From Candidatus Omnitrophota bacterium (lineage in GTDB: Bacteria > Omnitrophota > Gorgyraeia > Zapsychrales > Zapsychraceae), in contig JAIORP010000120.1 of the NCBI GenBank assembly GCA_021108075.1, forward strand, positions 21,557 through 85,556: DNA of 64,000 bases, in the 5' to 3' direction. The notes below the pieces were generated by a model that saw nothing but the letters and a program-made list of their open reading frames with translations, had not been told where the DNA came from and did not search any database. The translations under genes were made by a program, and so were the position numbers. Below are positions 26 to 51,801 of the stretch, in pieces (within the stretch, counting starts at the first letter, position 1; every line of letters starts with the position of its first letter).

Positions 26-450
26 ATGCTAACATCCTCCATGGTATTTGAAGGGCTTGCGCTTATTGTCCTGGGATATGTTGCCTGGCGAGTGGCCTGT
101 CTAGCGGTCAGAATGATTTGGAGTATTGGTGCGATGATCAAAGATCAATTCGGCGCCAAGGGCCAATATATCATCGAGCGTGAGGGAGGCAGGGCCCGTA
201 AGACGAATAGAGGAGCGACCGCCATATCGATCATATTATTTATAAGCGGTTTTGTTTTCTTTTTTGAATCTGCCTGGGGATGGGTTGCCCATCAATCCGA
301 TATGTTGTCGCGGGAACTTCCATCGACCGGTATTGATATCATGAGCGTGTCACCTGTTCAAGCAGCATGGCTGATGATTGCGGCTTTCGGTCTGGTTGCC
401 GCGGGTCTCTTGATATGTCTCTTTAAACGTCAACGGGCTGACCAGCGATT
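26..450 (+). other. N-terminal hydrophobic segment with about 3-4 predicted TM helices
   Basis: Hydrophobic stretches LALIVLGYVAWRVACLAV, AISIILFISGFVFFF and AAWLMIAAFGLVAAGLLICLF, followed by basic KRQR. Confidence 0.5.
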
Positions 451-3400
451 GTTGCCGCGCATCTTTTATAATAACGGAGAACCAACCGTTTTCTTCGCGT
501 CTGTCCGTGGATTGATCAGGAAATTTTTCCGCCCATCATTCAGCGATATTTTATCAGCGTATTTCAAAGATCAACCGGCCTTGAACGTGCTTGGCCTTGG
601 TGTTGGACAGGCGCATTTTGAACTCGGTCTCCGTCGACGGTTGGAACAAGCAGGTTATCACGTCAATCTGATGGGTGTTGATCACAATATGGACGCAAAA
701 GTCTTAAATCAGAAAAATCTGAAGGTCCCCGCGCAAAGAGATGAAGACGTGGTTGCTGTTCTTGGAGAACACTCACAGGATATTGTGGTTGTCAAAGCGC
801 CGGAATCCGGGCATATCCGTGAAGCCCTGGAAATGGCCTATCGATTGGTCAAAGACGGCGGATTAATTCTGACATCGATGTACGATTATCCTCGGGACCG
901 GATGTCTGTGAAGGTTTTAAGTGTGGAATCGCTTAATGGTTTTATATCATCAAAAATTGATCACTTTGCGCAGCAGAATGCAACAACACTTCAATTACAG
1001 GCGCTGGATTATCAGCCGTTGTTCACACCGAAGGGCGGGGATCCGGTATCCTATCCTATTTTTATCCAGGTGAGGAAGTCACGCGACAGGGAATATCAAA
1101 CAATGCAAATGAATCAATTTACGATGAAGCATATCACCTTCCTACTCCGTGAAGTGTTTGACCGCGGCGTCGGGGTCGTGATGTTATCTGTATGCTCACC
1201 ATTGATGCTTTTAATTGCCGTATTTATTAAATTGTTCCAGGGCGACGGGATTATGTTTATGCAAAAACGGATGGGCACAAACCGTGAGTTTGTGATGTAT
1301 AAATTCCGCACGATGACAACTGAGTTTGACCCGATTGAGAGATCGGAAACAACATTAGGGCGTATTCTTCGCCCCACACGTCTTGATGAACTGCCGCAAC
1401 TCTGGAATTTGGTTAATGGTGATATAGGTATTATTGGGCCGAGGCCGTTACCGCTCCGCCTTATCACGAAGGTTGGTCATCAAGCCTATAGAGCGAGCGG
1501 ATTAGCGCGACGCAAGAAGGGACTGATTGATGGATTAACGATGAATTTTATTTTACATGAACTCGTTAAACATTTGTCACAGAGCCGAATAACAGTCATT
1601 CAAGCATGGGCCAAACAACGGATCCAGAAATATTTTAGGAAATATTTGAATTATATCCGGGAGCAGCCAGACAAACAATTCATCTTTGAAGTGAACATGC
1701 TGTCCATTTTTGAGAAAACCCCGGTTGATTTCGAAAGCGTCAGCCAAAGCATTTTATTTAATAACCGTGAACACAATGACCGGGAGCCCATACGTAAGAA
1801 GTCGGCGATCCGTCTGTATTTACCGAAAGATTTTGAGAAACGATTTGCCCGGGTGAATACGGCAACCGCCCTTAATTTGATCCGTGATTTAGCCCGTCAA
1901 CCGCAAGGCCATGAAAGCGGAAGCTGGGTCCAACTGTCTGACCAGGAACAATTGGCCTTGATGGTGAAGGCTCTGGCTGCATCGCTGTGGCGCGATGATG
2001 TGACTGAACTTGCGCTCGCCCTGGAGGTCTTTGTCAAGTACGCGGATAACCTCCTGTATGATTTATGCGAAGACGCGACGGATTTGATTAAATCCTTCCT
2101 TAAAGTTTATCAAAAACGAGAAATTTTAAGATTTATACATTCTTCCTTCGGGGAGCAATTGCCACATGAATGGGTCGGATTTTTACGGGATGTGATTACT
2201 TATGTCTCGCTGCTGGAAAGTCAAGACGGGTATACTTATGGCCATGACACGCGTGTGGCGGAACTAAGCCTGGCTATCGCGCGAAAGATGCAAGCTAACG
2301 GACAAGCGCAATTTGATGCCGCGGCCTTACGCGATCTGTTCCTCGCTGGACTTCTGCATGACCTGGGCAAATTATTGGTACCGCTACCCGTTCTGAACAA
2401 GACAAAGCCGCGCACGCAAGCGGATGTCAGTATTTTCCACTTGCATCCGGAATGGGCCTTACAGTTGATCGATCTACCACCCGCGGCCAGCAGCGTCGGC
2501 GCCGGCGTTCTGTATCACCATATTTATCACAACCTGAAGAACGGGTACCCTCTTGACAGACTTTACGGCCAACCGTTGCCATTAAGCGCGCAAATCATCG
2601 CGGCTGCGGATACCTTCGACGCGCTCCATACAGACAGGACATACCGCAAAGGCGTTTCTGAACAGCAAGCCCTTGAGACAATGCACCCGTTGAAAGGCTC
2701 ACAATTATTGACAACAGCCGTCGAGGCTCTTGAGCAGCTGCACAAGGATAATCAGTTATCTTCTTATTATCACAATGGGCATGAACACAACCGCGCTTAC
2801 ATTTTATTGATCAAGTTGGTTAAGGATGCCAATGGTTTCAGCGCGAAGAAGGACACAAAAGATAAGGGTCAACCCGCCCGTTCAACCAGGTTCCCTCCGT
2901 ACATGCACTTAAAAGCTGAAGACCGGGAGATCATCAAAAAGATTAAACCAAAAACACAGATGATCCCCGGGGCCCGTCAAGGAGGACCCGCATTCTACTT
3001 GCCGCACTTCAATATCCCTGTTTATATTATTACACCGATTTATCCTTACCATATTAAGAAATTAGAAGAAGCCGTTGAGTGGATTGTGAAGAGCGGGTGG
3101 TTAACGTCTTATCCTGAAACCATGAAGTCCACAAATTGTATTTATATGGCCTATGATGAAACCGACCGGGCTGCGGGCGAAGCATATGATAACGGCGCGA
3201 CGTATGTTTACGTGAACGATTTTATGAAACAGTATGCCAGTTTCACCGCGGGAATCCTGATTCACGAAGATATTCATCATCAAAACAACCGGTTAACACC
3301 TTATTGGGACCGCTTAGATTTACCGGACAGTATTTTGAAGTACTATCCGAGGATCAGGCACGATTGGATGAAAGAAAGCTTCCGTATGCCGTCAGGCCTG

Positions 3401-6400
3401 TTGCATGAGTTGATTTCTTATTCGTATGAAATTCAATTTTTAAAACGCTTGTTGAGGCATAGTTTGGTTATGTCAAAGGCCGAGAGACAAAGCATTATGT
3501 CTATCATTCGGCATCGGAATGCAAAGAGCAAACACGTCTTAAAAATTTTATATTACCGCCGTCCGTTGATGAACACCGAAGGGGTGCAGATCTATTGGGA
3601 TTGTTGTTCGACCTGGCAGGACATTGATCAGTTTGTGAGCCGGAGGAGTCAACCGCGCAGTGTCGTTCCTACTCCGCGGCCAGTTTCAAGTAACCAGCAA
3701 GCTGATATGTTGAAATGGCTCGAGAGGAGAAAGCTCAAGCGTAAAGAAAAAGCTGATATCTGGGGATCATTCTATTTTGGCCTCCGGTATATTCATCGCG
3801 GCGGATCTGGCCTGATCAGACAAGCCGGGGCGATTTATCAAGCCTTTGTTACGGAATATGGATTTGCGCGCGGAACAATGCGCGCGTTCACGCATGCTAT
3901 CGCCACACCACACCATAAAGATCCGGCCTTTGCGCAATTACCGGATATCTTTAGATGGGCGATTGACGCGCATGAACAAGCCCATCACGCCGGGCTCAAT
4001 GAAAAGGCTGCTTACCTGGTTAATATCCAACCCTTGAGATCGGCACATGACCGCCATCCATTGAAAATATTCCGATTCTTAACCGTTATGAGCCTGAGAG
4101 CGAAACAGGTATTTATTTTGATGGTCATATTTGTCTATCTCTTTATCAATATTGTTTTCCCGGTTGACGCGGGGCAGGAAGCGGATAAGAACCTACCAGA
4201 TTCAGCAGGGGTTAAACTGCCGGTAAGAGTTGAAAGCCATGGGTTGTCCCATTGGTTGGATCAATTAGAACGGGTCGATCGGCATGTCACCATACCGCTT
4301 TCCGCGTTAGGACAGATGCGGGATTATCGGGCGGTTCCCCTTATCATAAAAAGATACGAGAAAGCGAAATCAACGGATGCGAAAGTCAAGATTATTTGGA
4401 CATTAAGACATTTTGATACGGAAGAGGTTGTTGCTTTCTTAACAGGGTTATATGTTCAGTATGGATTAGGATACCGGTTGCAACAGGCAGTTGAATCATC
4501 CCTGATCGAACTCAAACACATCGCGGTTCCTTATATCATAGACTTGATCGAGAAGTCAAATAAAAGATTACCCGGAGAGGTAAAGCTTCTTACGTTTGTC
4601 TCCGAACATGGTAGCGACCTGGCCGACGCATCCAAATCCGATCAGTCCGTCAGCCGTTTAAAGGCGAAGGTCAAACAAGGTCCGACATCTTCATTGTGGC
4701 AAGAAGGCCGGGTTGTTTCAGCCGCTAACAGTCTACTGGAAATGAGAACGCAAGATTATTCTAAGTTAAAGGCCCGATCAAAGATCAAAATATTGATGGA
4801 AAGAAGAGGAGCCTCTGGCCGGTATTTAACAAATTTGTGGGCGCAGACAAAGTCTTTAGACCAGCAGAAAAAGATTATTATTTTGTGGGGGGAGATCCGA
4901 TATATTTATGCTGTTCAAATTCTGAAAGATATTCAAGTCGGGGGAGCGCGGGAGTTACGCGCGTTAGCCGATAAATCGCTTCATCAGTTGGATGCTGAGA
5001 TCGAGCGCATTATCAGAAAAGAAAAAGAAAAACGCTGGATTATGTCTCAAGATAACAACCTTGTTTTCTTGGCTAAATATCATTTGGATATGCTCGTCAA
5101 ATATTTATCCGCGGATTATGAGGATTTTCATTTTGTTCTTTACAATGTCTTCGGTCAAGCTGGAAATAGCGAATCTGTGCCATGTCTCGTAGAAGGGCTT
5201 AACTCTGATGTCAGAAAAAATAGAGACGCGGCGGTTAAAAATTTGGGCCGGATCGGTGATCCCCTCGCGGTTCCGGCCCTCATTGACGTCATGAGAGATG
5301 GAAGTGTCATAACCGCATCGCTGGCATTATTAGAGGTAGACGACATTTATGGCATCATCGCGTCCTATGGTTACCGGGATAATGAATTGGTCCTGTATTT
5401 ATTGTCACCGATGCGAGAAGAGGTCCGGGTTCAATTGATCAAAGCCTTAAGAGATGAGGACAAGCGCATACAATGGGGCGCCTTAAAACTTATCCGTCAT
5501 TTCGGTGGAGTGGATCCGCAGGAATTAATTGATGTTTACACCCAATATGATTCTAAAGCGGGCCGCTTGATGGCAGAGATATTATCAGAGCAGGCAAAAG
5601 AAGAAGCGGTCAAGAAAATCCAGAGGAAGATCGAATCCACCATCGATGAAGATTTTAAACGGGTGAAAGAAGCGTATCTTCCACTGTTAAAGGATTTGGA
5701 CTCGAACGCCCATAGCCAGGCCAAATGGCATGTGTTCTGGAATTATTATTTGCCATTAGTCAGGGATAAAGCCATCATCTTGATCCTGCATTTGATACCG
5801 ATAACGATCCTGTTTATCCTTCTGAATCGATGGTTTAGAAGACAGAAAAGGGCTGATATCTGGGGATCATTCTATTTTGGCCTCCGGTATATTCACCGCG
5901 GCGGATCTGGCCTGATCAGACAAGCCGGGGCGATTTATCAAGCCTTTGTTACGGAATATGGATTTGCGCGCGGAACAATGCGCGCGTTCACGCATGCTAT
6001 CGCCACGCCAAATGACAAAGATTTGGCATTTAAGCATCTGCCGGAAACGATTAAACGGGGGATTGACGCGCATGAACAAGCTCATCGCGAAGGGCTCAAT
6101 GAAAAGGCCGCTTACCGCATCAATATCCAGTATTTCAGGGTTAAAGACCGTGTCGAGGCCATGATTGAAGACGTGATGGTTGACCGCGACCAATTGAGCC
6201 TGTTCATTCGAGAAATGTTAAGACGGTTTACGTTCGCGGAACATTTTGTTGACTTTTTGATCCGCCATAAAGAAGGTGTTCAGGTGGTTGCCCTTAAGGT
6301 GCATGACTTCAAGAATCAATTCATCGGACGCGGGGAAGAATTAGGCGTCGGACATAAACTCGGATCCATTGCCCTGTCGAACGTTATCGCTCGCCATCTT

Positions 6401-9400
6401 AGAGACGCCATCAATAAATACCTGAAAGACAATAATTTCCGCAGGATTGTTAAGGACAATGTTTTTAACGAAGGGGATACCTTCTTTGTCGTGATCGGAT
6501 ATACGCGTGCTACCCGTGAGAACCAATCGTTTGATATTGAGACGATGATACAGTATATTCTCAGGTCATCGTCTTTCCGCAGTAAAGTTGTTAAAGGTGT
6601 GAAGAAACGCTCCGGCATCGCCAGGAAATTAGACGATTTTACCGAGAAAGATTTTCATATGTATGGCGGTATTTCTAAATTATATGAAGGTTCGTTAAGC
6701 CAGGAAGATATGGGTACGGTCCTGAGCGTCGCGGACCGTCTGCAAATGCAAGCCATGCGCACAGCGAATATGATCCACCTTAAGTACACAAGTTACTATG
6801 CCGATTTCCTCGAAGAAATGAAAACCTTGCTGGCACGGACAGATTTAACGGAACAGGAAATGTTGGACCGCCGTGAATTGTTGTACCGAAGACTGAATAA
6901 GCTCATCCTGAGACAAAAAGTCAGCCGGGTCCAATTGTTTTCGACGATTATAGCAAAAGAAATTAAGAGAGCGCAAGGCGCAGGATTGACGAAGAAGATT
7001 AATCATTTTGACACAGTTACAGAACTTTATCCAGATGATAAGGTCTCCACTATTGACATCAAGGTTGCATTATGGGAAGCCATTCAAGCAAAAGACATTC
7101 ATGAAACAAGGACCCAGTTGAGGAAATTGATCAACCGCCGCATCATCTACCGCAGTAACCGTATTCCAGGAAGAGACAATATCTTCACCGGGTACACCAA
7201 TATCCGCCGTTTCATTAACTATCTTATTCGACGGCGTCCGAGTGAAAGTTTTGACATGGTTTATCGTCTTGGACGACAATCTGATGAATACGCTGTTCTG
7301 CTTTGGGATGCACTTAACCAAAAATTAGCTGTGTTCCGGTTTGACGCGATGAATGTCTCGACCATTGCCAATTATTATAGCCGGGCGGCGGCCAGTGAAA
7401 TGTTGGACGAAATGAGTTTAGCGATCAAACATGTTGTCAAAGAATCAGCCAAAGACCATAGAACTTTAGCAGCGCGATTAATTTATATCCGCAAGAATTT
7501 ACACCGTCACATCGGTGAACGATTTAAAGATAAACCTTATTATGCCACACCGGCTGTTTATGATGTTTTCTTTGAAGAAATGACGATCTGGCGAAAGCAA
7601 AAAATTTATCTATTGGTCAAAGGGACAAATACGTCCTATTCCATGAAATTTAAGAATGGATGTCCGGAAATACGCCATTCAAACGGTTCGCTGGTAAGGT
7701 GGAATAACCTTCCGTTCACATACAAACACATAAACGGTGATCAGGCAAAGATCAAATTATTAGAAATAAATAAATACGCGTTGTTGAGGATAAAACCAGA
7801 GGTTTATCAACGGCTCCAAAAAACAGGGCGCGTCTATAATGATGATGAAATGATAAACGGAACAGTTGTGATTCCGACCATTCCAATTCTGCCAGGGGGA
7901 TATTTGATTGTTGATGTCGCCGCTATCAGACAGGATGACCTGATGAAAGATTTTGGTGACTTGCAATGGTATGCCGATAGCATGGCCGAATGGATAAAGA
8001 ATCATGTGATTAGACCACACCAGATTATGGGCCGGATCATAAGGCCGCGGATGACAATATCGGAATGGCGCAATGATATTAAAAGTGATATTGCTCAATT
8101 AAAAGAGTATCATCCCACACCGTATAAAGTTTTAGTCGCGGAGATGATGTTGCAGCGCGTTCTGAAAGAAAAAGAACAAAGCGAAGAGAGGAAAAAAGAA
8201 GAGCGGGAGGACACATTAAGAGACGAGATAGATTCGGATACAGGTTATCAAACATCTGCGTTCGGTTCGTTTGTCTTTGGCAGCGTCATGACCGTGCCGG
8301 TTCTCTTCGGCGTGAAGCTCGCCGTAGTGCTGTCTCTATCAAGTCCGGCGCTTGGTGTTCTGACCGGACTTGTCAGTCTCGTCGCGGCTTTTGTCGCGGC
8401 GCATTATTTCAGAGAGTTTATTGAAATTGCTTTAGCCACGTTGCTCGTCAAGTTCGGACGCATACGCGGCCCGGATGCGGTCAGACAGAATTTGGCCGAA
8501 GAGTGGCGTACGGCTGTTGAACATGGCCGTGCGGTTGTGACTCCGACACTTAAACAACCGGCTCAGAAACGAAAGACAGAAAATGTCATCCGCGTAAACC
8601 CTCAAATTTTATCGCGCTTATCGGTGAGTGTTCAACAGGCGATTTACCGTCATGAGATGCTGCACCTTAATGGTCAGGGAGAAATAAGCGCCTATTTGCA
8701 ACAAAATTTAATCATAGACAATGTTTGGAAGGGCATCCGTTTAGTTGTTTCAAACAAGAAATACCCCGTGATCCAGCAACTCTTTAAGAATGTGACAGAG
8801 GCGGACTCAGGGGCAGTTGATGATCGGCATCACGGTAAAGGCCGGATTCCAGCATTGGCCCATGTCTTAGTCGCGTGGCTTTATTGGTTGACGCGAAGAG
8901 TTCATAAATCGAACTTACCTGTCGCCTACGAAAAAGCATTACGGGTGGCCAAGGCCATCCAGCCATTGATCGAACAGGTTCTTTTCTGGAAGATTTCATT
9001 GCTGCTCATGGGGCTTATCAATATTCCGATCGGGATCCTGATCACGTGGGGTCTTTTCTATGGTCTGCACTTTTTCGAAACAAAGGATTGGAAAAAGCCT
9101 TCTTCTTTCCAGATATTGTGGGTTTCTGTTGTGAATGTCCTTGCCCAGGATATCCTGGTCTTGATGCCTCTTGACCAGGTTGCGTTGTTTAATATTTTCA
9201 GTTTGAGTGCCCATCCATACGCTTATGCTGCGTTTGCGGCGGTACTTATTTATCACTATATTTACGAATACGGTTTTATCTATGTGTTCCGCCGTATATG
9301 GGGCCACCGGGTGAAAGTTCGATTACGTAAAGAATATGCGGAAAAGGGCCGATACGTCGGTGAATTTGAAGTTAAATACCGGTTTGGCCGGCCAAATTTA

Positions 9401-12400
9401 TTCGCTGATATTCTTTATCCCGCGAAAGCCTATAATGCCCACGTCTATGTTCCACAAAGAATAGTTAAGGAAGGATATAAAATTTATCGAGGGCGTATCA
9501 CGACCCATTCAAAACAAAAGCTGCATGACACGATTGACCGTATGCGGCGCGTCTCTGATATCTACATACCAAGATTCAAAGGGGTCCAATGGACGATTGC
9601 GGTTGATATCGATGATAAGGTCGGAAGTTTGTATGAACTCACACACCTATTAGGCCGTCACAATATTTTAATATCAGGTTTTCTCCCGCCGCAAATAAAT
9701 GAGCAACAGAAAAACGTCTGCCTGTTCCTCGAACTCGATGTGCCTAAACGAATCGGCAGTTATACGTCTTTGACAAAACTCATGCAAGAGAAATATCCTG
9801 AATTCGGAAAGGATGAAGACAGGCCGCCTATTCAGGGATCATTGTTTGAGAAGAAATTGAGTGAATTGATGGAAAACATCGGCATACGTCTATCCCTCCG
9901 GGAAGTGGACCTCTGGTTAAAGGCCTTATCGGTTAATAACCGTTATCTCTGTCGAGCCCGTAAAAATGAGCACGATGCTTACGTGGATCATTTTTTGAGG
10001 GTCGTTGAAATTTTAGTTTTGAAATTTGGCGTTAAGGACAAACAGGTCCTCCTGGCGGCCTTGTTGCATGACAGCGTTGAAGATGACGTCCTTACCCCAG
10101 AGGAACTGCGTCAATTATTTGGTGATGAGATCCATGATATCGTTATGCTGCTGTCTAAACGTCAACCTAAAATGGTTTATATTGATGAGAAGATGTACTT
10201 GTTAAATATGGTCAACGCGCTTGAATCGAACCGCAGCATTGCGTCAAAGGCGATCCTTATCAAATTAGCCGACCGCGTGCATAACATGCGAACATTAGAC
10301 ACCAAAGATGAAAATTTTCACCGCCGGTATTATTTCTCAACGATGGATACCTTTGTGAATGAGTTTGTCTTCGAGGTTATTAAGGCTTATGAACAGCAGC
10401 GTTTATCGGTACCAGAAAGCTATCCGATAAGCCGGGGTGTAAACTTGCTGGCCAAGCAAGTGTTGAAAACAGGTCGTCTGCTGTCCATCGTGACCTCTTC
10501 TAAAAAGATTCGTGTGGATGAGCTGTTTACTTATTTATCTAAGTTAGAAGAACCGATTGTCAAGGAGATGCTCAGGAAATTTAAAGTAGGAGAAAAAGTC
10601 GTGTCTGATATGGATTCAGAGGCGCTGGCCGTCTACCTGTATATGCTGTATCGACGGACAGTGTCAGGGAAATATAGTGATAATTATGAAGAAATTGTTA
10701 GCGTGGTCGCGATGTATACGGAAATTTACAAAGAGTTGGAACGCATGTCCGCGTTGAAATACCGACCATTGCGTTTGTTTGGGTATGATGAGGGTTCAGC
10801 GGGATCAGATCGAACGGGAACATCCGCATTGGCCTTCCCGAGACCAAATTGTTTTCTGGTGGAATTGTCCCGTCTAGGTATTGATGTGCTGAACTTAAAC
10901 GATAATATACCGGATAACAAGAAAGCTGTCTTTGACGATCAGATCATTATTTCTGCCCCGGAACTCATCTCTGTTATGGAATGTCTGCTTACGAGCGGCG
11001 AGCAATTTGATATTGATCATAATATCTATGTCTGTTCTCAGCTAACATACACGGTAAAAAATGACAGGATTCGAGAAGTCTGGCACGCGATATCCCATCG
11101 AGAATATCGTCAATTAGGACCTTTAGAGAAGAACAGCTATTTGCCATTTAAAGACTTTTTGAAATTAAACGTAGCTGATGTCTGGTTAGGCGCGCGCCGA
11201 AAAATGATTGAAGAAGACGAAGAGCTCCCAGGGCGTAAAGGTGTCAGCATGACGTTTATTACGAAATCTTTAAAAGAATTAGCGGACTATTGGCAAAAAC
11301 TAAAAGACATTTATCCTGGCGTGTCCATTTTTGGTTCATCACGGGTTCCTTCACCGGTCGCTAAAGAACTCGCTAAAAGACTTTCAGATCTGCTGTATGC
11401 CATCATTTCCGGCGGCGGTCCCGCGGCAATGTCCTCGGCTAATGAAGGTGGCCGTTTGGGTCGTCGAGGGGTTTCAGTTGGCCTGGCCTTACAATTACCG
11501 TTTGAAGAAGAAATCAATAAATATATTAATGAACCTTTCTATTTTGAATATTTCTTTACTCGACTCCTGGCATTCTTAACATTGAGTGTGGCCTTTATCC
11601 ATGTGAAAGGTGGTATTGGAACCCTTGATGAATTCTTTACCGTCGCAGCGATGAAAGATCTTGGTATTATTTCTGAAGAAACACCGATTATCCTCGTGGA
11701 CAAAAAATTGTATGGTCCGTTAGATAAATTGTTGAAGCAATGGGATGAACTGGGGTATACGCGCCTGAAATCAGATCAAATTTACTCCCTGTACGGTAAT
11801 AAAGACGTGGATGCCATTATCCATGAAGTCATTTTCGCTTTTGAAAGGTTAACACAGGACGATATCCTTAGGTTGAAGAAAAAACAAGTCCGCCGCGACT
11901 TGCTCAGGATAAACCGTCATCTCAGGAGACTCGGACCCACCGTCGGTATTGTGGGCGCGCATCGCGGTGTCGGTCCGCAAAATTATAATTACGAGATGGC
12001 TGAACAGATCAGCACAGCTTTAGCAGAATTGGATTTATCCATCCTGCGCGTCTCTGAGACCGGTATCGGAGACGCGGTCCAGCAAGGTTTTCTGCGGGCC
12101 AAAAAAGAAGCCCGTCAGGAAGGAAAGATGTTTACCGCGCGGGATTGTTTGATCGGAACAAAAGATGATATAAACGGCAATGGTCATCCGATTGATAAGG
12201 TCTTGCGCCTGTCGCATGATTCGTTAAAGAAAGTGATTTTTAGTTATGGTTACAGTGATATCCTGCTGGCCTTCCCTGGCGGTTATTCAACGATGGAAAT
12301 TATTACGGAGATCGCCACCCTTATTAATACGGGAAAGATGAATCCGGCGCGTCCGATTATTCTTTTTAACAGCAAATACTGGGCGCCATGGATGGATTTC

Positions 12401-27400: not shown

Positions 27401-30400
27401 ACTGAAAGTGTAAGAGAAGTTGCATATATTTCTTTAAGGCGGGAAGATGGGCACCTGATATCATATTCTTCCTTATGTGATCCTTATTTTATAAGTAGGA
27501 AAATTAAGAGAAATAAATTCAGCGGTATAGTAGAGGGCATGGAGGTGACTAAATTCGGGTGGGTAAGCATTGGGATAGATAACTTTTTTATTCCGCAGAC
27601 ACGCGGCTGGGCTGTAGATATTAAGTATGATAACGGAGAGGCAGTAAAACTTTATCTGATTAATCCTGAAAGTGGAGAAAGATTAGAAAAAGATGCGGAA
27701 GAGGTAAAGGTAGAAACAAGTGACGAGTGGACAGAAGAAAGAAAAGCAATGTTTAAGAGAAAAAAGGGTATTATTCTTGATAGGGCTAAAAGATATTGTA
27801 ATTATGCAGGTATATATGGAATAAATTTCCATGAGCTTGTTTCAGAAGGAGAAAAAGCATTAATGGGAGCAATATTGCGTAACTATAAACCTGGAGAAAT
27901 TAGATATGAATATGCAGTTCTTTGTATAAATGGAGGGATGTTAAACCTGATTGATAATGAGAGAAAAGCAAGAAATATCAGAAAGCAGGACAGCAGGAGG
28001 ATAGCCTGGTTATACAAAACAATGCAAGAGCTGGAAAAGGAATTAAATAGAGAACCTGAGGCTCAGGAGATATGTGAGGCGATGGATATAAGTATGGAAG
28101 AGTTATTTGAGATACAGAAAATTCGGGGAAGGTTAGCCACCTCTAGTATGGATTTTCCGACCGGAGGGAGAGGGGAAGAATACAGGTCAATGCATGAAGT
28201 AATAGGCGATAAGGCAATGTTAGCAGATGAGATAATGGAGGCGTCAGAACGGGAGGCAGCCATTAGAGATGCAATGAGTAGGCTGTCGGAAGAAGAAAGG
28301 GAATATATCAGGATGCTTTTTGGATTTAATGAAGAGATATATTCAGCGGAAGAAATTGCTCGGTTAGAGGGAATTACCTTGGAGAAATTTAATGTCATTA
28401 AATTCGAAATATTTGCGAAAATGGGAGAATATGTAAAGGAGTATAGTTCGCATGGATCGAGGATTAAAGGAAGAATTGAGCAAGATTCAAAAATCGACCC
28501 TGCTATCAATTGGATGGCTCCTAAAGGTGTGCCGGAAGGATTGGAGGGGGCAGATGAAGGGGCATATTCAGGAGATACTTTTGATACGAGGTTGAGTGGC
28601 GAGGAGATAAGAAACGGTAGCTTTTATTGGAGGGATTTGTCAGCGGGAGCGCTCGGGGCGGCGCTTGCAAGGGCATTGGCACAGGAAGGGGATGGAGATG
28701 TAGAAGCAGGGGAAGGAAAGACAAGGTACAAATTTGTCGGCTATATTATTAAGAGAAATGATGAAGGTGAATTAGTAAGCATTTTCACCGCCTACCACAG
28801 AAACAGCGATACAATCCTCATCAGCAAAGCACTCCCATCAATAATTGAAGCATTTAATAAACATCCTGAAATAGGGCGTAAAAATGGAAAATTCGGCGCG
28901 GGAGATATTCTCGCAGAGGCTCTGTTTAAACATGAACTGTCGCATAGAGGGGAAGGCAGGTCAGGATCAGATGTGGAAAAGGAACAAGACGCAAAAGATA
29001 TCCATTGCCACCGTGATTTGGCAAGAGAGAACAGTATTGACATTAATACCCTCGCGGATGTCCTGGTTGAGATGAATGTTATTACGGTGGCATTTGCAGG
29101 GTTGTTGAAGAAGCCGGACATGATTCCGCAGTCAGAGGTGAAAGGAGACAGGGAAGAAATTGTTTTGGAACAAAGTGGATGGGCCTGCGCGGCCTGTGGA
29201 AAATCTGTCGATGGTTTGATCCAGCGATGGGAAGAGACCATTATTGAAAGGAATGACCTGCAGGCGCTCAAAGCCCGGGTGAAGACATCAAGAACTGTTT
29301 ATGAGACGACATTAGACCATACGGGTGTTGATGCGCGTTATCTACGCGTTGGATCATTTATTTTAATCGATCGATCTGTAGATCAAGCGCAAGCGTGGCA
29401 GGCGGTATTACCCCATAACGTCATTTTAATCGAACGACCATTGGAGTATGACACATACATTGTCTCTATGATCGCCGCGCTGTTGGATCTGGCACAGGAA
29501 AATATTTTGAATAATGCTGTTGTGGAAATCCACGGTGTTGATACCGGATTGATGGTTTATGTGGCCTTGCGTTTGGGAGCAAAGCGCGTGGTTGGGATTG
29601 ACCGTGGAGAAGAAGCCATTCAACAAACGGCACAGTTGCTGAGTGACCATCATTACCGGGGGGCTGTTTTAACTGAAGAAGACTGGTTCACTTATGCGAG
29701 CGAACAGGATGAGGATTATGTCCTGGTTCAAGGGGAGTTAAAGAATTGGTATGCGGTATCGTATCAGCAACGTCAAAATTTACGCGGTCAAAAGGAGTAT
29801 ATCCGTCTCAATGATACGGGGCCGCATTATTCCATTCATCAAGACGCGATGCGAGACATGTTAAGAGACCCCGACGCTGTTGCCATCGTGCTTGGTAATT
29901 ATATTAATTCATCGCCTTTGGCCCGATCGCAAACCCCCGGCGGTTTAAAATCCTTAGGGGATGAAGTCGATATTTCAGCCCTGCAGGCCATCGGTTGGAC
30001 AGTGGAACAAATTGCTTATCCGACAAAATATAAAGATTTTGTGACGCTTGTTGCTCAAAGGGAGCGGAACGCGTCAAAGAAAAAATTGGCCGATCACCCG
30101 GTCGAAAATCTTGGCCGACAGTCCGGGGATCCCGGGTTTCTCACCGGCCGGCCAGTAACCGTACAGTCCATTCCACAACCGCGTAAAGTTTTTGTCGGAG
30201 GAGGTGAGCGCGTCAATCAAGAGGATTTCGTTCCTGTTATCACAGACAGCATCAAGCAAGTCGCGCAAACACAATTAACCCGGTTATTAGATCGATATCA
30301 TTTTGATTCCAATGCCGTCTTTTACCGTTTCCATCAGGGAACAGATCCAGCGCAAACGCTTGAACAGGAACGCCAACAGCTGATCGATGCTCAGGGTGGA

Positions 30401-33400
30401 ACATGTTTGGGTTTATCCTCTATGTTACAAGAGAACATGTTGACGGCATTATTTCGACCGGACTTTGCCAGTGACTTATCGCGCCGTCTGGGATCAAGGG
30501 TTGATACGCATATTTTAGAACATGATGACCGTCAATACCGTTTCGTCATTACTGTCGATGGCAAAAATTTTGTCATTCATGGGTATTTAATCGGCGCGTT
30601 AGCGATTGATCAATTCAATCACCGTTCCAGATCCCGCGTGTCTGCCCGGGAGAGTGAATATTATCGTTACCTGCATTATGCTAATATACTGAAAATTTAT
30701 AGTGAGCAGGAGTCGGTTGCCGCGTTTGTCAGCGATCCGGGCTTTGGTGTTCATTATCTCCTTCCATTAAATGAATCCGTTATGGGGTTACGCGCTCAAG
30801 TCAGGGTCCGGCCGTTAGCGCGCGATGAATGGCCTGTCTATCAATATGATAACCGTGAACTGGCGTGGTTCAACCGTCCGGCTTACCGGGTTTTTGGTGA
30901 AAGCATTCAGAATAAGTTGTTGATTTTAGAAGGGGTGTCCGCGCGCCCAATGGTCTTTGTTGATCAACTGTCTGAATCTGTTTACCGACGACGTTTTTAT
31001 CAAGGGTATCTCGCGATCAGCTTAAATAATATTCAGAGGATTATGCGTTTTGAAGCGAAGACGGGCAGAGTCAAGGTATTGGCCGAAGTATCCTTTGGCT
31101 CCGAACGAAGTCCGCGGTTGACGTTTAAGCTAAGATATTACAACGCGCAAGGAAAACGAATGAAAGTGGTCTTAAATGAAAAACAATTGCGCTTAGCGCT
31201 TGAAAACATGCGTACTTATCGAGAAGGGCGGGATCAAACAGTTTTGCCGAGACACAGCGCGATGGCGCTCGAAGCCGGAGAACTATTGGGACAAACACGA
31301 CAAGAGTGGGAAGACCGTATTGCCGTTATTTTAGATCAATTCGCATACCGTAAGGAAAAGACATTCAGGACTCAATCCGGCCTGTCTGAGAGCACTGTGC
31401 CGGAAGGCGCGTGGGATGTGGATCAGCGCACATATGTCACAGAAGATGACCGTGTTTACGATAAATTTGATTATCAGGATCTGGTCGAGCAGGGTTATAC
31501 CGTCTATAGGAATCATCAGGTCGAACTGGTATTCTTATTACGTAAAGACGCGTCGGTCGTCTTGATCGATGTCATTGCCGTGACAGATCGTCAAGCCATG
31601 GAATACATGGGATGGATCCATGCGAGCTTCCGGTCGCCGTTAATGCTTGACCGGTCCTTACATGATGTTGATTTACGTTTCACTTTGGCCACGGTTGAAT
31701 TCTTATCCGGACTGGACGCGAATATACTGGACGAGATTTATCACATGCCGCGGCAACAAGTGGCCTTGTTTGTCGATCTGTCCTATCAGAATGTTAAGAA
31801 ATACGCGCAATTTTATAATATTGATAAAATATTGATGAGTTCGGTCTTGAACCTCGCGCAGCACTCGGGATTTGAACGCTTCACCGTCAATCCGGCCCAA
31901 AATAAATACGACTATTACCGCGAACGTTTTCACGCAGAGTCCTCCGGTCATTTTACCCGGAACATGCTGGATATGGTGTATTACCTGGCGATTGACATTA
32001 CCGAACAGATCGATATGCCATATATTCTTTTTGATCGTGATCATTTGAACCGGCTCCGATATTTGCTTGTTGAACGCAGCCATCCAGCGCTTGATACTGT
32101 TGTCCGTGTCATTATTCGCGAACGCGCGACAGGACGTTATTTGGTGTTGCAAAAATTAGCGGCCTCAGTCGCTCCGGGCTGCTGGGAAACTCCTGGTGGA
32201 AACGTCGATACATACGAGACATGGCGACAAGCGGCCTTAAGGGAAACAGAAGAAGAGACCGGTTTTGATATTGATTGGGTCGAGGCATTGAATCCAGGGC
32301 AACCGGTGATTTGCTGTTTTGACCGGTTTGTCCGCAGAATTTATGGTTTTTATACGGAGATGGATCGCGTGCACGAACCGTCTATTAATAATAAGTTCAA
32401 AGAAGATGGAACATGTGAAGATAAGCATGCCGCAGCCAGTTGGAAGACGGAGAAAGAAATAAGAATACTTATGGACATGAACCCATCTGAACAGGCCTCC
32501 ATGCTGAAGACCAGCCGGGTTGTTTTTGATTTGCTGTTGTCCGATGGCGTTATCGACATGGAACGGGTGTCAAGAATCGTTCATTGTGTTCGTGATTTAC
32601 CGCGAAATTGCGCTTATAAGAATGTCTCCACGAAAGAAAAATCTGATTTATTAACACATCTCCTGATTCAGATCCACCGGAAGCAAATAGATGAGGTTGT
32701 CGAGCGGCAATGGGATGACGACGGAAACATTCAAAATTATTACATCAAGGCCGGAGCATTAAAGACTGCTCTGCAATCTAAATTGTATGTTCAACCCGTT
32801 AAGGATAACTATTGGCATGTGGTCACAGATAAAGCCCAGTTTTATCGTGGGCCGGAAGGAACGGATAACCCTTGGACGATTCAAGACCTTGATGATGACG
32901 ATTACGTTGGAGCACGCAAACGTAAAAGACGTTCCAGACACGATAAAGAATCCGTTGTTAAATTAGAGATGGAGAAAAAAGCACAGCCGGATCATCAGAT
33001 TGAATACATTCAAGAACGCCGGATCATCAGCCGTAAGTTTATCACCCGCTCCATCAAAGAATTGGATATGTATTGGCAGATGTTTGATGTGATTTATCCG
33101 GCGATAGCCATTTATGGTTCAGCTCGAATCCCATCTGCTGTGGGCAGAGACCTGGCCAAACGTTTTTCAACATTAGGCTACGCGATCACAACCGGTGGAG
33201 GACCGGGTTGTATGGAGTCAGTCAACCAGGGCGCGTTAGAAGGCCTTCGACGGTTATCTGTTGGTTTAGGCCTGAAATTGCCGTATGAAGATAAATTAAA
33301 TGACTATGTTAACATCCCATTTGAATTTCAATACCTTTTCACGCGGTTATTAGCCTTCCTCACATTTAATCGCGCCCATCTGCATGTCAAAGGCGGGCTG

Positions 33401-36400
33401 GGCACATTAAATGAATTCTTTACCGTGACAGCGGCCAAAGAGATCGGTTTTATCTCGGGAGATACACCAATCGTCCTGATCGATAAATGGATGTGGGGTG
33501 TTTTTGATCAATTGATTCGGCAATGGGATGATCGCGGCTTTAGCTCTTACCGTGCGCAGGATATGTATCAACTATACGGCGCAAAACAAAGATCTCAAAT
33601 TGTCCATGATGTCCATCAGACCGCGAAGCATATGCAACGCCAGAACGTGTTATGTATTAACACCGAACTGATTTTTAGGGAATTGAATAATATTAACCGG
33701 CGGCTGAAGGGGCTTGGACCGACAGTCGGTATTATCGGTGATGACCGCAGTATACGCGAAGGAGAGTATGACTTCGGCGTCGCTGAAAGATTGGCGTCAG
33801 TTTTGGCAAAAGAAGGTCTTTCTATCCTGCGCACCAGTGAACGGGGGATCGGCGACGCTGTGCATCGGGGATTTGTCGATGCCCGCCGTGTTGCGCGGCA
33901 GGCTCCGTACAGAGTCAAAGAGCGTTTGATCGGTACAGCCCATGACATCAACGGAAATGGGAATGGTACAGCCCATACATTAAAACTATCATATGACTTT
34001 TTAAAGAAGATCGTGCTGAGCAGTCCATACACGGATGCCTTGATTGTCTTCCCGGGCGGTTATCACGTGATGGATGTTTTGATGGAAGAAGCGTGCTTGA
34101 TCAAGACCCACAAGATCGCTCCCCGGCCGATAATCCTCATGAACAGCAGGTATTGGACCCCATGGCGTGAAGATTTTCTGCGGGCTAAAATGGTCGCTGC
34201 CAAAACAGCCAATCATAAGGAAATCAATTATTTACATATCGCGGATACGCCGGAACAGGTCAAAAAAATTCTGATGCCGCATTTGTATCAGCAAGGTTGG
34301 TATGGTGAACAGGCCAAGACCTCAAAGTCCAGGGCGATCGTCTCTAACATCGGCAAGGTTTCTTCGAAGAGAAAGCAGCGTAATAAAAGCAAGAAGAATC
34401 AAAATGGCGATAAGAACGATCATTCGATCCGTCCGGTTGTCCAACTTCTTATCGGTCTATTGTTATTCTGGTGGCCGAAAGTGGGTAAAGGTTTTAGGCG
34501 TGTTGGTACTGAAACGTTCAGGGCGCGGAACGACTATTTATTAACATCAGCAACTTATCGCGGCCCACCATGGGTGAAGGTTATCGCGGCCTTTGTCCGA
34601 GCTTGGCTTTTACCGGTTGCCCGGGGCGTTGATGCGGACGGTCAGGTGCGCTGGTATGTGCCGCGATCGTACCGAATTTTAAATCTGTCCTATCAGACTC
34701 AATATTCGATTGACCGGCATGAAAGACAATATTCCGCACGTCCTATCCTCGGACTCTTTTTAGGGGAATTTAAAGGCCTTCGGGCCCAGGTACAGGGATT
34801 CCTCAATAAAGAGTGGATGTTTGAATATTTAGATCGCTTAGACATCATGCAGTATACACAGAAAGATAGCTTATACGGACGAGGATTATCAGTGCCCCGT
34901 GAACACGCAACTTCTTTATTCGACCGGCTCGTTCGGTCCAAACATCTGCACGCGTCTTCGGATGTTTTAGGGCGTGAATATCAACGTGTTTTCAGCCAGT
35001 ATTCTGCCTTCTGGGCTGATCATATTCTCGCGAGCCATGCTTTGATATTATCCGGGGCAAAAAATATCCGGCGGGATTCTGTTACGGTTGTCGGTGTTGG
35101 CGCGGCAAGGGAGATTCCTTTAACGGAATTAGCGGTGCTATTTAATACAGTCAAGATTATTGATATGGATGACTCAAGTTTGAGAGATGCCTACCTATCT
35201 GTTCCGGCCCAGGCTGTTGATGAAACCGGGGTACTATTGCGGTCGAAAATTCAGATGATTCAAAGGGATATAACAGATGATCAGATGCTTCAGTTAGCGC
35301 GGGCAGGATTGAAGATTATCGAACAGAATACAGAACCTCAAAAAGCTTATTTAGAGTTGGTCAAATTGTACCGCGACACAAAATTGCAACCGGTGTCCGC
35401 AATGGATGACGATTTGGCCGCCTCCTATATTGTTTCTTCATGTGTTTCCAGCCAAATCATGTGTTATCCCGTTGATTTTATCTACCAAAAATTCTCTAAG
35501 AAATTCGGCCTAAAATGGGATGACCTGGAAGCATGGAATAATATTTTGGAAAAAGATCAGGGATCTGCGCTATTGACGGTTTACCACGACGCGTTTGAGC
35601 GACTTCAGTTGCAGGTCTTCAGCCAGCATGTCCAACTGCTGCAGTCCATCGTCCATCCAGAAGGGCATATTTACTGGTCTGATACGGTCATATCATTACC
35701 GCTGCTCCAGAGCATGAAAAAGGAAGATATGGGGCTGTTTTATGACCGGTACTTCAGGGCGATCAAACCTGATATCGCAAGGATGGATGCTGACAGCGCG
35801 GCGCAGGCAAAGTTTGAAGATCGTAAGCTTTATTACCGCCGAAAACATCCGTCATTGGGCGAAGACCGGATCGCAGCCATTGCTTATATATCATTGATGG
35901 GTGAACAGATTCTTCCATTTAAGAAAGAATATAAGGGCATCTGGACTTTGATGAAAATAGCGCCAAAGGTTTCGACATCTGCTATCGGCCACATGCTGAA
36001 TCAGGAACAACTGCAACAGCTGGAGTGTATTTTAGGAACACCTGACAGCCGCAGAGACTGGTTCTGGGTCGCGAATCCATTTAATGTTTCCCACGGAGAG
36101 TCAAACGGCGCTTTCCTTGTTCAATCCAGATTGTTTACAGCACGGGATAAAAAAGCACTTCTCTCAGACAAGGCGTCGAGTGACCGGTCCGCTCTGGTTG
36201 AGCAAGAATTCTCCATGGAAGTCGAAGACCCCGGCCTGTTTGAAGAACAGATGAGTTGTACCGCAAAGAATGGTTGGTTCTGCGCGGCGTTACCGGATAT
36301 GTCCGGAAAGGTGGCGGTCATTCGCCGGTCAGGGATCGGGAAGGCGAAAGCCTTATCGGAGATCGAACAGATTATCCGTCAGGAACAATACTTACAGTTC

Positions 36401-46855: not shown

Positions 46856-47332
46856 TTAATGCGCCGTTTTTTTTTGGTCAGGCAGGTTTTTATAAATAAT
46901 GATGAGGAGTACGATGATAAATAGTAGTCCAAAAACGAGAATGTAAAAATATTCTATCGAGTGTTCCACATATCCGATGATGTCTTTTCTGCCGGGCTGA
47001 TAGTTATCTAAATAATGATTATAATCCCCTTTTGTGGAAACCAGATCTCCATCGACAGAAACCACCCTGTGGACAAGGATCTTTTTTTTCAGCGGGTTAT
47101 AGAAGGCAATGGGTCTGCCGATGAGATTGTTTAAGTCATCGCCCCATCTGTTATTAATAAGCACGAGACTATTTTTTGGAATATAAGGGGCCATCGAATT
47201 GCTTGTGACCATAAAGATCGGGGTAGATGTGTTTTTCCAATGGCACCATCCTAGTATGGCGAGTGTTATAAAGAGAAATAAAAGAATGGCCGCGATAAGA
47301 ACGATCTTTGCCGTTGTATGTGTTTTTTTCAT
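46856..47332 (-). CDS. Signal peptidase I, SipW/eukaryotic-type (S26B): N-terminal TM, catalytic core and C-terminal TM
   Basis: Box-B-like TSNSMAPYIPKNSLVLI (Ser nucleophile), HRVV box, N-terminal TM IVLIAAILLFLFITLAILGW and C-terminal TM ILVFGLLFIIVLLIII. Confidence 0.65.
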   Translation of the reverse strand: MKKTHTTAKIVLIAAILLFLFITLAILGWCHWKNTSTPIFMVTSNSMAPYIPKNSLVLINNRWGDDLNNLIGRPIAFYNPLKKKILVHRVVSVDGDLVSTKGDYNHYLDNYQPGRKDIIGYVEHSIEYFYILVFGLLFIIVLLIIIYKNLPDQKKTAH

Positions 47333-51158: not shown

Positions 51159-51776
51159 GTGTCGAATAAAAGTATTCTTGACATAACGTCTCGTTTAAGG
51201 CACCAGGCTCATGACGGGAACATTATTATGAAATTTAAGCAATATTGTCTGGTTTTACTTATTTCTTTAATCGTTTATTATTGCGGCCGGTCCTTTCCTG
51301 CCGGGATTTATCATTTGTTTGCTGTGTCGTCCGGTGAAATGGTCGCCTTTATTATGGGGTGGCTGCCGATGACAAACGAATGGGGGGAGCTTTTTATTGT
51401 CGCACCGCAAAAACCCATTCATATAACGCCTAAATGCAATGGCTTTGGATTTTTTTCCCTTTTGCTGGCTTTTGTTTGGGTCCGCGTGCTGTTTAAAAAA
51501 CAAGAGGTCATATCGGCGTTTGGCCAGTTTTGGCTGATTTTGTTTAGTGTTTATTTCATTGCTATTCTATCGAATGTGATGCGGATGCTGCTGGCTTATT
51601 ATGTGCACTTAATGTCGGTTCATGTGCTGCCGACTAAGTATCAATCGGGAATTCATATGGGGATAGGTGTGGTGACTTTTTTATTTGTTTTTATGGGGAT
51701 CAGCATCTGTTTAGATTTCTGGGACCGTTTAACGGCAGGCAACAGCCCGCGAGTTGCGCAGGGTGGTCGATTCTGA
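51159..51776 (+). CDS. Exosortase/archaeosortase-family protein (short; XrtN-like?). The start is uncertain: GTG 51159 or ATG 51228.
   Basis: Three ordered signature motifs of the family: ITPKCNGFGFF (Cys motif, compare CSG), LSNVMRMLL (NxxR) and GIHMGIG (HxG). Multiple TM helices. Confidence 0.5.
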   Translation: MSNKSILDITSRLRHQAHDGNIIMKFKQYCLVLLISLIVYYCGRSFPAGIYHLFAVSSGEMVAFIMGWLPMTNEWGELFIVAPQKPIHITPKCNGFGFFSLLLAFVWVRVLFKKQEVISAFGQFWLILFSVYFIAILSNVMRMLLAYYVHLMSVHVLPTKYQSGIHMGIGVVTFLFVFMGISICLDFWDRLTAGNSPRVAQGGRF

Positions 51777-51801
51777 CGTTTAATTATGGGAGGGACTTAT
51801 T

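Follow-up and report, generated by a model that had tools for sequence, protein, structure and literature searches.

What does a single bacterial polypeptide of more than 15,000 residues do, when domains for cyclic-dinucleotide, alarmone, and nucleotide chemistry are strung along it? The question is raised by a 64,000-nucleotide stretch of Candidatus Omnitrophota DNA (contig JAIORP010000120.1; hereafter the window), which carries one giant open reading frame (ORF). A sequence-only reading of the window had drawn attention to an unusual concentration of nucleotide-signaling and nucleotide-processing domains at nucleotides (nt) 2200-34170. This region is part of one genuine single gene of Candidatus Omnitrophota, and its membrane-anchored product of 15,549 residues strikingly exemplifies a protein class that was described only lately and is still poorly understood, rather than a new kind of system. 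What is new here is the all-hydrolase theme of its nucleotide modules, a tandem-LOG arrangement, read as a pseudo-dimer, that is shared with Patescibacteria, and an embedded sigma-like module.

The giant frame contains no internal stop codon of any type over 15,549 codons, against 685-1179 in each of the other five frames, and the chance of such a stop-free frame, calculated from base composition, is ~1e-430. Because in-frame stops of every kind are absent, the ORF holds under any genetic code and is no product of chance. Its start at nt 26 is merely the first ATG. The frame is open upstream of this codon to window base 2, and the true start of the gene may therefore lie upstream; on this side, the source contig extends ~21.5 kb past the start of the window.

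Nucleotide hydrolase modules

Pfam profiles (E ≤ 0.01) and NCBIfam profiles were scanned over the giant protein, and a lenient Pfam scan at E ≤ 2 covered amino acids (aa) 2040-2720 and other unannotated regions. The profile searches agree with the proposal that HD-GYP, RelA/SpoT-type HD, Nudix, three LOG pairs, PGT, and a superfamily 1 (SF1) helicase are fused in one polypeptide, the PGT being a partial match (Table 1). The Pfam matches of PGT, HD_5, HD_4, LOG, NUDIX, and helicase are all far above chance. Judged from alignments, HD-GYP, HD_4, Nudix, and the N-half of every LOG pair retain their catalytic residues, and the systematic substitution expected of pseudo-enzymes was not found.

The best solved relative of the HD-GYP domain is the V. 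cholerae 3′3′-cGAMP phosphodiesterase V-cGAP3 (5z7c, 2.3e-12), with which it keeps H, HD, H, HH, GYP, and D. Its motifs are HDLGK (aa 778-782), HH...NGYP (aa 839-842), and DTFDAL...RTYR.

The HD_4 domain harbors LLHDSVEDD (aa 3346-3354) and KLADRVHNMRTL (aa 3413-3424), and it includes the segment ILIKLADRVHNMRTL (aa 3410-3424) that had been quoted as a near-canonical RelA/SpoT HD. Its PDB relatives are Mesh1 (3nqw, 4.6e-11) and Rel (5xnx, 1.2e-10), and H, HD, ED, D, and N are all kept in the alignments. As in SAH/Mesh1 and the Rel/SpoT hydrolase domain, the HD_4 fold comes with complete metal-binding and catalytic residues. It is also hydrolase-only; no synthetase domain follows HD_4, and the NCBIfam spoT_relA model is matched at profile positions 18-141 only. 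Unlike SAH/Mesh1, HD_4 is embedded here in a ~420-aa module common only to other giant proteins, three of which (P0031, P0040, and P0052) carry it at ~30% identity. An ACT-like segment preceding HD_4 was considered and rejected, with just E = 0.21 in the lenient Pfam scan.

In the Nudix domain, the box is canonical; GX5EX7REUXEEXGU corresponds to GGNVDTYETWRQAALRETEEETGF (aa 10724-10747), and the U position following RE is a Thr. The closest solved relatives are the nucleoside triphosphate (NTP) pyrophosphohydrolases NudG (2rrk, 1.3e-5), NUDT15, and MutT. The PGT core has a re-entrant helix (aa 383-403), KFRTM, and a DE dyad (LDELPQ, aa 453-458). The Bac_transf match spans profile positions 2-116 of 179 only, and the C-terminal third is unmatched.

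On the basis of family assignment, every recognizable nucleotide module is a hydrolase. The sequence-only reading had envisaged a machine that both generates and degrades nucleotide messengers; the predicted hydrolases fit the degrading part, whereas no enzyme for the generating part was found. GGDEF, CD-NTase, RelA/SpoT synthetase, and other cyclase domains gave no match at any threshold tried (E ≤ 0.01 over the whole protein and E ≤ 2 in the unannotated regions), and a PDB search of aa 2060-2260 was negative for a cyclase or synthetase. Two stretches picked out by eye as degenerate GGDEF palms (aa 2070-2240 and 2380-2560) were unsupported by the lenient Pfam, PDB, and homologue searches.

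Tandem LOG pairs

All six LOG domains that had been proposed, arranged as three pairs, are detected. However, the C-halves lack catalytic residues, and alignment suggests that the active LOG sites probably number three instead of six. In pair 1, the N-half (aa 3758-3945) harbors GGGPAAM, the Arg of FFTRLL, which aligns to the invariant LOG Arg, and KGGIGTLDE (aa 3861-3869), while the C-half (aa 3969-4160) is degenerate, with SETGIGDAV, KK, and PGGYSTMEI. Pair 3 is a paralogue of pair 1 (46-52% identity) and has GGGPGCM, Arg, and KGGLGTLNE (aa 11122-11130) in its N-half; pair 2 is the most divergent (~21% identity to pairs 1 and 3) and has GGGPGMM, Arg, and GGFGTTDE (aa 5915-5922). The C-half is degenerate in both. 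Across all three C-halves, the Gly-rich loop is lost, the Arg is replaced by Lys or Gln, and the Glu is replaced by Ile, Val, or a gap. In alignments of 20 and 29 homologues, the Arg and Glu of the N-half never vary, while the C-half Glu position is variable or Gln.

Structure prediction, proposed earlier as a check and carried out for pair 1, supports a confident LOG fold. The AlphaFold2 (AF2) model of this pair, for which a homologue alignment served as input, comprises two domains (pLDDT 90.9, pTM 0.91). In Foldseek, the model has target-normalized TM-scores of 0.82-0.87 to the single-domain type-II LOG structures 5zi9, 5wq3, 9us2, and 1wek, while PpnN is matched over the LOG core only (TM-score 0.35-0.49, root-mean-square deviation 4.7-13.6 Å).

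Type-II LOG and PpnN convert a nucleoside monophosphate (NMP) to the base and ribose-5-phosphate, and PpnN (YgdH) has the architecture PAG1 (DUF4478)-MND-PAG2 (DUF3412) (PMC6717881). Neither DUF4478 nor DUF3412 has a Pfam match in the giant protein. The module lacks matches to the PAG1 and PAG2 domains of PpnN (6gfl) and is therefore not a PpnN orthologue. Type-II LOG enzymes have the same fold, GGGxGxM loop, Arg, and PGGxGTxxE motif as the N-halves. They are homodimers or hexamers, in contrast to the covalently fused pair observed here, which has a degenerate second copy and a function that is predicted only. Because the dimer contact of LOG enzymes lies beside the PGGxGTxxE motif and PpnN is gated by a PAG2 domain similar to a second LOG monomer (PMC6717881), every LOG pair may be read as an intramolecular pseudo-dimer, with one catalytic half and one structural or regulatory half.

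An exhaustive HMMER search detects the ~420-aa LOG pair, aligned in one piece, in proteins of 419-7,135 aa. The partner domains of these tandem-LOG proteins vary and include PrmA-like methyltransferases, HTH, sigma region 4, nucleotidyltransferase, and peptidase M23. In P0010, a cytidine/dCMP deaminase lies directly upstream of the tandem LOG, an adjacency that points to nucleotide metabolism rather than signaling. An ORF of at least 4,587 aa on metagenome contig Ga0172375_10000431 (L086:5-13768), open at the locus start, encodes GNAT, HD, tandem LOG, and PD40/WD40 domains; thus, the combination of HD, GNAT, and tandem LOG recurs elsewhere.

Stand-alone tandem-LOG proteins of 445-465 aa occur in Patescibacteria (P0151-P0176), in housekeeping neighborhoods. 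These "TIGR00730 family" pairs share the two-LOG layout across 94% of the module at 27-30% identity, with Gln in place of Glu in the second copy. They differ in being separate genes and in that their second copy retains the Gly-rich loop and the Arg, both of which are lost in the C-halves of the giant. On the strength of these alignments, the tandem-LOG pair is a portable, reusable module common to giants and stand-alone Patescibacteria genes. At two Patescibacteria loci (L083:6001-8563 and L082:6001-8123), one tandem-LOG gene is directly upstream of TGT, and the other is located between GatCAB-type amidase genes and LGT.

Membrane topology and a proposed function

A hydropathy scan supports the proposal that the protein is membrane-anchored, as it identifies ~17 hydrophobic segments. 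These cluster at aa 10-133, 383-403, 1355-1380, 1916-1934, 2745-3090, and 12275-12352 and in three C-terminal repeats; no convincing transmembrane (TM) segment is present in aa 3091-12274. The 15 residues after the last TM segment preceding aa 3091 include five K/R, with none before that segment. The flank after aa 1934 is K/R-biased like the flank after aa 133, and the flank after aa 1380 is acidic. By the positive-inside rule, the PGT and HD-GYP (aa 134-1354) as well as aa 3091-12274, harboring HD_4, the LOG pairs, HATPase_c, the sigma-like module, and Nudix, are predicted to be cytoplasmic. The predicted outside location of the HEAT segment agrees with the literature on Omnitrophota giants. 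The topology is based on the hydropathy scan and charge counts rather than on a dedicated predictor.

The favored account, for which the case is about evenly balanced, is that of a cytoplasm-facing scaffold that would end alarmone and cyclic-dinucleotide signals and degrade NTPs, via NMPs, to base and ribose-5-phosphate. The HD-GYP domain would linearize or cleave cyclic dinucleotides, and the Mesh1/SpoT-like HD domain would strip the 3′-pyrophosphate from (p)ppGpp. The MutT/NudG-like Nudix domain would turn NTPs or NDP-X into NMPs, which the LOG N-halves would split into free base and ribose-5-phosphate, like type-II LOG and PpnN. The degenerate LOG C-half would be a structural or regulatory partner, by analogy with the LOG-derived gate of PpnN. 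Together, the modules would make up one scaffolded line for terminating signals and salvaging nucleotides, placed along the inner membrane face beside kinase-type ATPase, sigma-like, and helicase modules. The Nudix domain is ~200 aa ahead of pair 3 and HD_4 is ~320 aa ahead of pair 1, a spacing that is compatible with such a line but is no proof of it. The gene-class assignment is well supported; the biochemistry and the coupling between modules are what we infer.

Several considerations weigh against this account. The substrates are assigned by family membership at 25-40% identity. The HD_4 fold covers enzymes with other substrates, and NADPH phosphatase activity is also reported for Mesh1. 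Approximately 70% of the giant protein has no recognizable domain, and a synthetase of another type could hide there. Hundreds to thousands of residues separate the modules, and their functional coupling is assumed. In addition, Omnitrophota reportedly encode nucleotide biosynthesis (PMC10066038), such that a need for salvage is not obvious, and topology predictions for related giants differ between programs (10.1101/2023.11.21.568195).

Further modules, rival explanations, and related giants

The features of the giant protein are collected in Table 1. A near-complete sigma-70-like module, an odd element inside a 15,000-aa membrane protein, sits between copies of a 226-aa repeat; the tandem-LOG giant P0014 likewise has Sigma70_r4 and HTH domains. 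The helicase has complete catalytic residues, with Walker A GPAASGKT (aa 13462-13469) and Walker B IIDEAA (aa 13593-13598), and no PDB sequence relative at 1e-3. The GNAT and methyltransferases named in the sequence-only reading are represented by sub-threshold matches only. GNAT reaches E = 0.078, and the methyltransferase models besides PrmA that fall below the Pfam thresholds are Methyltransf_31 (8e-4) and Methyltransf_23 (0.024). A stretch at aa 10090-10330, taken by eye for an arylamine N-acetyltransferase Cys-His-Asp fold, was not supported by follow-up searches. PADLOC-DB 2.0 yields generic matches only (helicase/MkoA, 1.7e-17; Nudix/PDC-S07; methyltransferase/mad2), with none for the LOG, HD, or sigma segments and no signature of a known anti-phage defense system.

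Table 1. Features of the giant gene and its product, in order along the window (E-values as reported by the searches named).
Feature	Position (nt)	Position (aa)	Strand	Evidence and remarks
Giant ORF	26-46675	15,549 aa in total	+	ORF list; nt 2200-34170 lie wholly within it
Three N-terminal hydrophobic (TM) segments	53-424	10-28, 63-81, 112-133	+	Hydropathy; 5 K/R after aa 133
PGT (Bac_transf) core	1151-1468	376-481	+	Pfam 1.2e-27; NCBIfam EPS_sugtrans 1.7e-33
HD-GYP (HD_5)	2207-2698	728-891	+	Pfam 3.5e-21
HExxH motifs	3260-3280, 3968-3985, 6068-6085, 8648-8665, 26039-26056, 28928-28945		+	Shuffle comparison
HEAT-containing segment, predicted outside the cytoplasm	4088-5827	1381-1915 outside	+	HEAT_2 4.4e-14 (aa 1689-1760); charges of TM flanks
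About five hydrophobic segments	8258-9295	2745-3090	+	Last one followed by K/R-rich IWGHRVKVRLRKEYA
Conserved ~420-aa module (N-terminal part without family match, plus HD_4)	9308-10573	3095-3516	+	blastp
RelA/SpoT-type HD hydrolase (HD_4)	9926-10354	3301-3443	+	Pfam 6.4e-14
LOG pair 1	11297-12505	~3758-4160	+	Lysine_decarbox 1.6e-31; PDB type-II LOG 9us2 2e-31
LOG pair 2	17378-18676	~5785-6217	+	Lysine_decarbox 6.6e-13
HATPase_c 1, C-terminal part with G2 box	20243-20407	6740-6794	+	Pfam 4e-9; many NCBIfam sensor-kinase models on the same part
HATPase_c 2	23462-23806	7813-7927	+	Pfam 1.8e-6, 28.8 bits against a gathering threshold of 26.4
Sigma-70-like module, regions 2-4	27743-28426	9240-9467	+	NCBIfam RpoD_Cterm 7.6e-16, profile positions 3-225 of 238; Sigma70_r3 2e-5
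Nudix	32099-32473	10692-10816	+	Pfam 3.3e-12
LOG pair 3	33083-34309	~11020-11428	+	Lysine_decarbox 7.8e-23
Hydrophobic segment(s)	36848-37081	12275-12352	+	End of a ~9,200-aa TM-free stretch
Upf1-like SF1 helicase	40346-41695	13441-13890	+	AAA_12 6.6e-13; AAA_11 1.2e-7; NCBIfam PLuB helicase-like 1.8e-9
PrmA-like SAM-methyltransferase motif region, sub-threshold	42197-42388		+	PrmA 3e-4 (20.7 bits; Pfam cut-off 22)
Three C-terminal repeats, 40-58% identity	44318-46672	14765-15549	+	Self-comparison; hydropathy

Self-comparison reveals diverged internal duplications throughout the giant protein. A 226-aa module occurs three times at 74-89% identity (aa 8511-9699, nt 25556-29122), and its middle copy has RELWH in place of HELWH; these copies have diverged too far, or are too long, to be picked up as tandem repeats in the DNA. 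Segments aa 1232-1338 and aa 1932-2038 are 77% identical, and a ~120-aa unit is found three times at 26-29% identity in aa 4720-5100 (nt 14183-15325) and is also conserved in P0031 and P0040. Every C-terminal repeat comprises a hydrophobic segment and ARYQ(R/T)PDYRSLW(N/D)H and is without a Pfam or NCBIfam family match. Between nt 20000 and 30000, the coding strand is strongly purine-rich, with a GC skew of 0.27-0.42 (~0.1 elsewhere), an AT skew of 0.12-0.19, and a lower GC content of 0.37-0.45. This stretch coincides with the E/K/G-rich aa ~6700-9700, which contain the second HATPase_c, the thrice-repeated module, and the sigma-like module, and it may be a later expansion or insertion.

Module order also varies between proteins. 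P0031 (4,064 aa) and P0040 (6,022 aa) share the modules at aa 3095-3516, 4500-4672, and 4695-5156 at 26-31% identity, in a different order. P0001, a fragment from a close relative, matches aa 4198-4497 at 67% identity, beyond which the two sequences part abruptly. From such comparisons, giant proteins seem to evolve by shuffling semi-autonomous modules. Relatives of aa 3290-4489 were not found in a genome-collection scan, nor were relatives of the N-terminal 480 aa in a metagenome scan, and hence orthologous loci and the sequence upstream of the window were not recovered.

The HExxH motif is found six times (aa 1080, 1316, 2016, 2876, 8673, and 9636), compared with 0.73 ± 0.85 in shuffles, and HExxE variants are located at aa 5658 and 6627. 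The HExxH motifs are set within recurring modules of the form "beta-strand ... HExxH" (aa 1080, 1316/2016, 2876, and 8673/9636), which may be small zincin-like peptidases, a lead rather than a finding.

The genes 3′ of the giant ORF encode GntR, an ABC ATPase/transporter, membrane proteins, and MutL/MutS, and the flanking genes are of normal size. Exact-sequence matching identifies the MutS and ABC ATPase encoded there as MCD4780667.1 and MCD4780659.1, respectively, and their NCBI label is Candidatus Omnitrophica/Omnitrophota bacterium. Among GTDB species-representative genomes, the nearest MutS (62% identity) is from a Ca. Omnitrophota metagenome-assembled genome (MAG) and the second-nearest (61%) is from a MAG labeled Planctomycetales, with every other match listed at 46% or below. 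The adjacency of MutS and MutL is conserved. Rfam families, tRNAs, and tandem DNA repeats (TRF) were searched for in the window, and none were found. At nt 51159-54816 (+), a 205-aa membrane protein with a sub-threshold exosortase (EpsH) match precedes a multi-TM protein of 1,004 aa that carries a VIT domain; encoded 4.5 kb downstream from the giant gene, the two may form a sorting pair of the exosortase type. A 158-aa product at nt 46856-47332 (-), immediately downstream of the giant gene on the opposite strand, has the look of a type I signal peptidase, with an N-terminal TM segment and SNSMAPY, but was set aside as it has no Pfam match.

Other explanations have been weighed against a cytoplasm-facing hydrolase scaffold. 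That the ORF is an artefact of mis-assembly, or of separate genes read as one, can hardly be credited. The sequence does come from a metagenome assembly, its 5′ end is undefined within the window, and the internal repeats at aa 8511-9699 are 74-89% identical. However, the frame is free of stops, the flanking genes are normal-sized and their proteins are found on 4-5 contigs from several sources, orthologue fragments at 67-80% identity occur in other samples, and such genes are typical of the phylum. The sequence-only reading had also offered a multi-effector weapon. In a prey-directed version, the giant or pieces of it would be delivered to a host or prey cell, whose nucleotides would be depleted and whose alarmone or cyclic-dinucleotide signals would be erased by the LOG, Nudix, and HD modules. 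This explanation draws on the predatory or episymbiotic ultra-small cells included in Omnitrophota (PMC10066038), on the rise of V. archaeovorus giant-protein peptides upon attachment to prey (PMC10066038; 10.1101/2023.11.21.568195), and on the membrane association of the giant and the degradative nature of all its nucleotide modules. MARTX and polymorphic toxins likewise carry many enzymatic modules along one very long chain, but the trafficking repeats, autoprocessing protease, and immunity gene of those systems were not found here, and the predicted orientation is cytoplasmic. Specifically, Pfam scans contain no RHS, RTX, filamentous-haemagglutinin, PAAR, or LXG-type domain and no CPD, HINT, or C39 releasing peptidase, and GntR, ABC transporter, and MutL/MutS genes are located downstream instead of a small immunity-like gene. 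PADLOC is without a match for the LOG or HD modules, the positive-inside rule places them in the cytoplasm of the producer, and the same stretch also holds sigma-like, kinase-ATPase, and helicase modules, which require cytoplasmic partners. A weapon is, on balance, improbable.

A self-processing polyprotein, in which HExxH zincin-like modules cut a precursor into its enzymes and the fusion is a mere mode of expression, is also improbable. Processing of Omnitrophota giants by embedded peptidases has been proposed (10.1101/2023.11.21.568195), and the enrichment of HExxH in recurrent modules and a weak SprT-like match at aa 2790-2905 (E = 0.038) are in line with it. Yet just four of the motifs are independent, two pairs being recent duplicates; there is no significant HMM match, the PDB profile search is empty, the HExxH modules resemble one another only marginally (E = 0.02-3), and for the thrice-repeated module (aa 8511-8736) the AF2 model is unusable (pLDDT 41.5). 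Alternatively, the protein could be a sensor or scaffold composed mostly of pseudo-enzymes, whose nucleotide folds sense ligands, as proposed for SLOG, and regulate the kinase-ATPase, sigma-like, and helicase parts. The loss of the Gly-rich loop, Arg, and Glu from every LOG C-half, the partial PGT match, the sub-threshold GNAT and methyltransferase matches, and the presence of regulatory HATPase_c and sigma-70-like modules in the same stretch all speak for this possibility, which is nevertheless unlikely in view of the complete catalytic residues in HD-GYP, HD_4, Nudix, the three N-half LOGs, and the helicase. A bolder form of the hydrolase scaffold is a hard-wired hub, in which the LOG C-halves would be allosteric alarmone or nucleotide sensors, like the PAG gate of PpnN, that control the NMP nucleosidase, while the HD hydrolases of the same chain would destroy its activating ligand, together with a membrane-tethered sigma-70-like module and kinase-type ATPases. 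This hub is a rather unlikely proposition. If it were true, a whole stringent-response-like circuit of signal removal, nucleotide-pool adjustment, and transcriptional output would be one membrane-anchored molecule, possibly released piecewise by the HExxH modules.

The uniqueness implied for this fusion does not hold, as Omnitrophota giants with NUDIX, Lysine_decarbox, HATPase_c, HEAT, GNAT, methyltransferase, and HD domains have already been published. ORFs of >20 kb are present in most Omnitrophota classes (PMC10066038). A figure legend in West-Roberts et al. 2023 names NUDIX, Lysine_decarbox, HATPase_c, and HEAT_2 among giant-protein domains (10.1101/2023.11.21.568195), and Nielsen and Lui 2026 catalogued 916 proteins of at least 10,000 aa (10.64898/2026.06.07.730766). 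With class 1 of the latter authors, the "multi-enzyme clusters", the giant shares its phylum, a length of >10,000 aa, many Pfams without a dominant one, and HATPase_c, HD, NUDIX, and HEAT domains, as well as several predicted TM helices, a predicted cytoplasmic bulk, and internal repeats diverged at the nucleotide level. It contains ~12 distinct Pfam families, with HATPase_c and HD each present twice above threshold. The "Module 1" of these authors consists of methyltransferase, HATPase_c, GNAT, HAD, and HD regulators and is read by them as inner-membrane-anchored, cytoplasm-facing, and TM-only (10.64898/2026.06.07.730766). Compared with Module 1, HAD was not found here, and GNAT and methyltransferase are sub-threshold only. 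Tandem LOG pairs, RelA/SpoT-type HD, and HD-GYP are not singled out by Nielsen and Lui, and PF03641 is absent from their text (10.64898/2026.06.07.730766).

Archaeovorins have HEAT repeats in predicted outside loops, methyltransferases, and NUDIX, the type being a 39,678-aa protein of V. archaeovorus; they consistently contain GT1/GT5, glycosyl hydrolases (GH), and peptidases, and most have SecA_DEAD or SecA preprotein-binding domains (10.1101/2023.11.21.568195). The giant shares with them HEAT in a predicted outside loop, NUDIX (3.3e-12), Lysine_decarbox, and HATPase_c, and its methyltransferase is just sub-threshold. However, it is half the size of the type or less within the window and is nucleotide-centered instead of carbohydrate-centered, and Pfam/NCBIfam scans of the giant protein gave no match to GT1, GT5, GH, SecA_DEAD/SecA, C39, or S8 peptidase. 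The giant fits the very long multi-enzyme class of Omnitrophota; because no GT1, GT5, GH, SecA_DEAD, or C39 was found, it does not fit the narrower Archaeovorin description.

Omnitrophota giants are abundant, widespread, and functionally almost blank, and published readings center on adhesion and on cell-wall or carbohydrate processing. The giant described here displays a different coherent theme, that of several nucleotide hydrolases that look active and are predicted to face the cytoplasm. The Patescibacteria with which it shares the tandem LOG are another lineage of ultra-small, host-dependent cells. Its clonable modules of 150-440 aa have predicted substrates, making part of the function of a giant protein testable at the bench.

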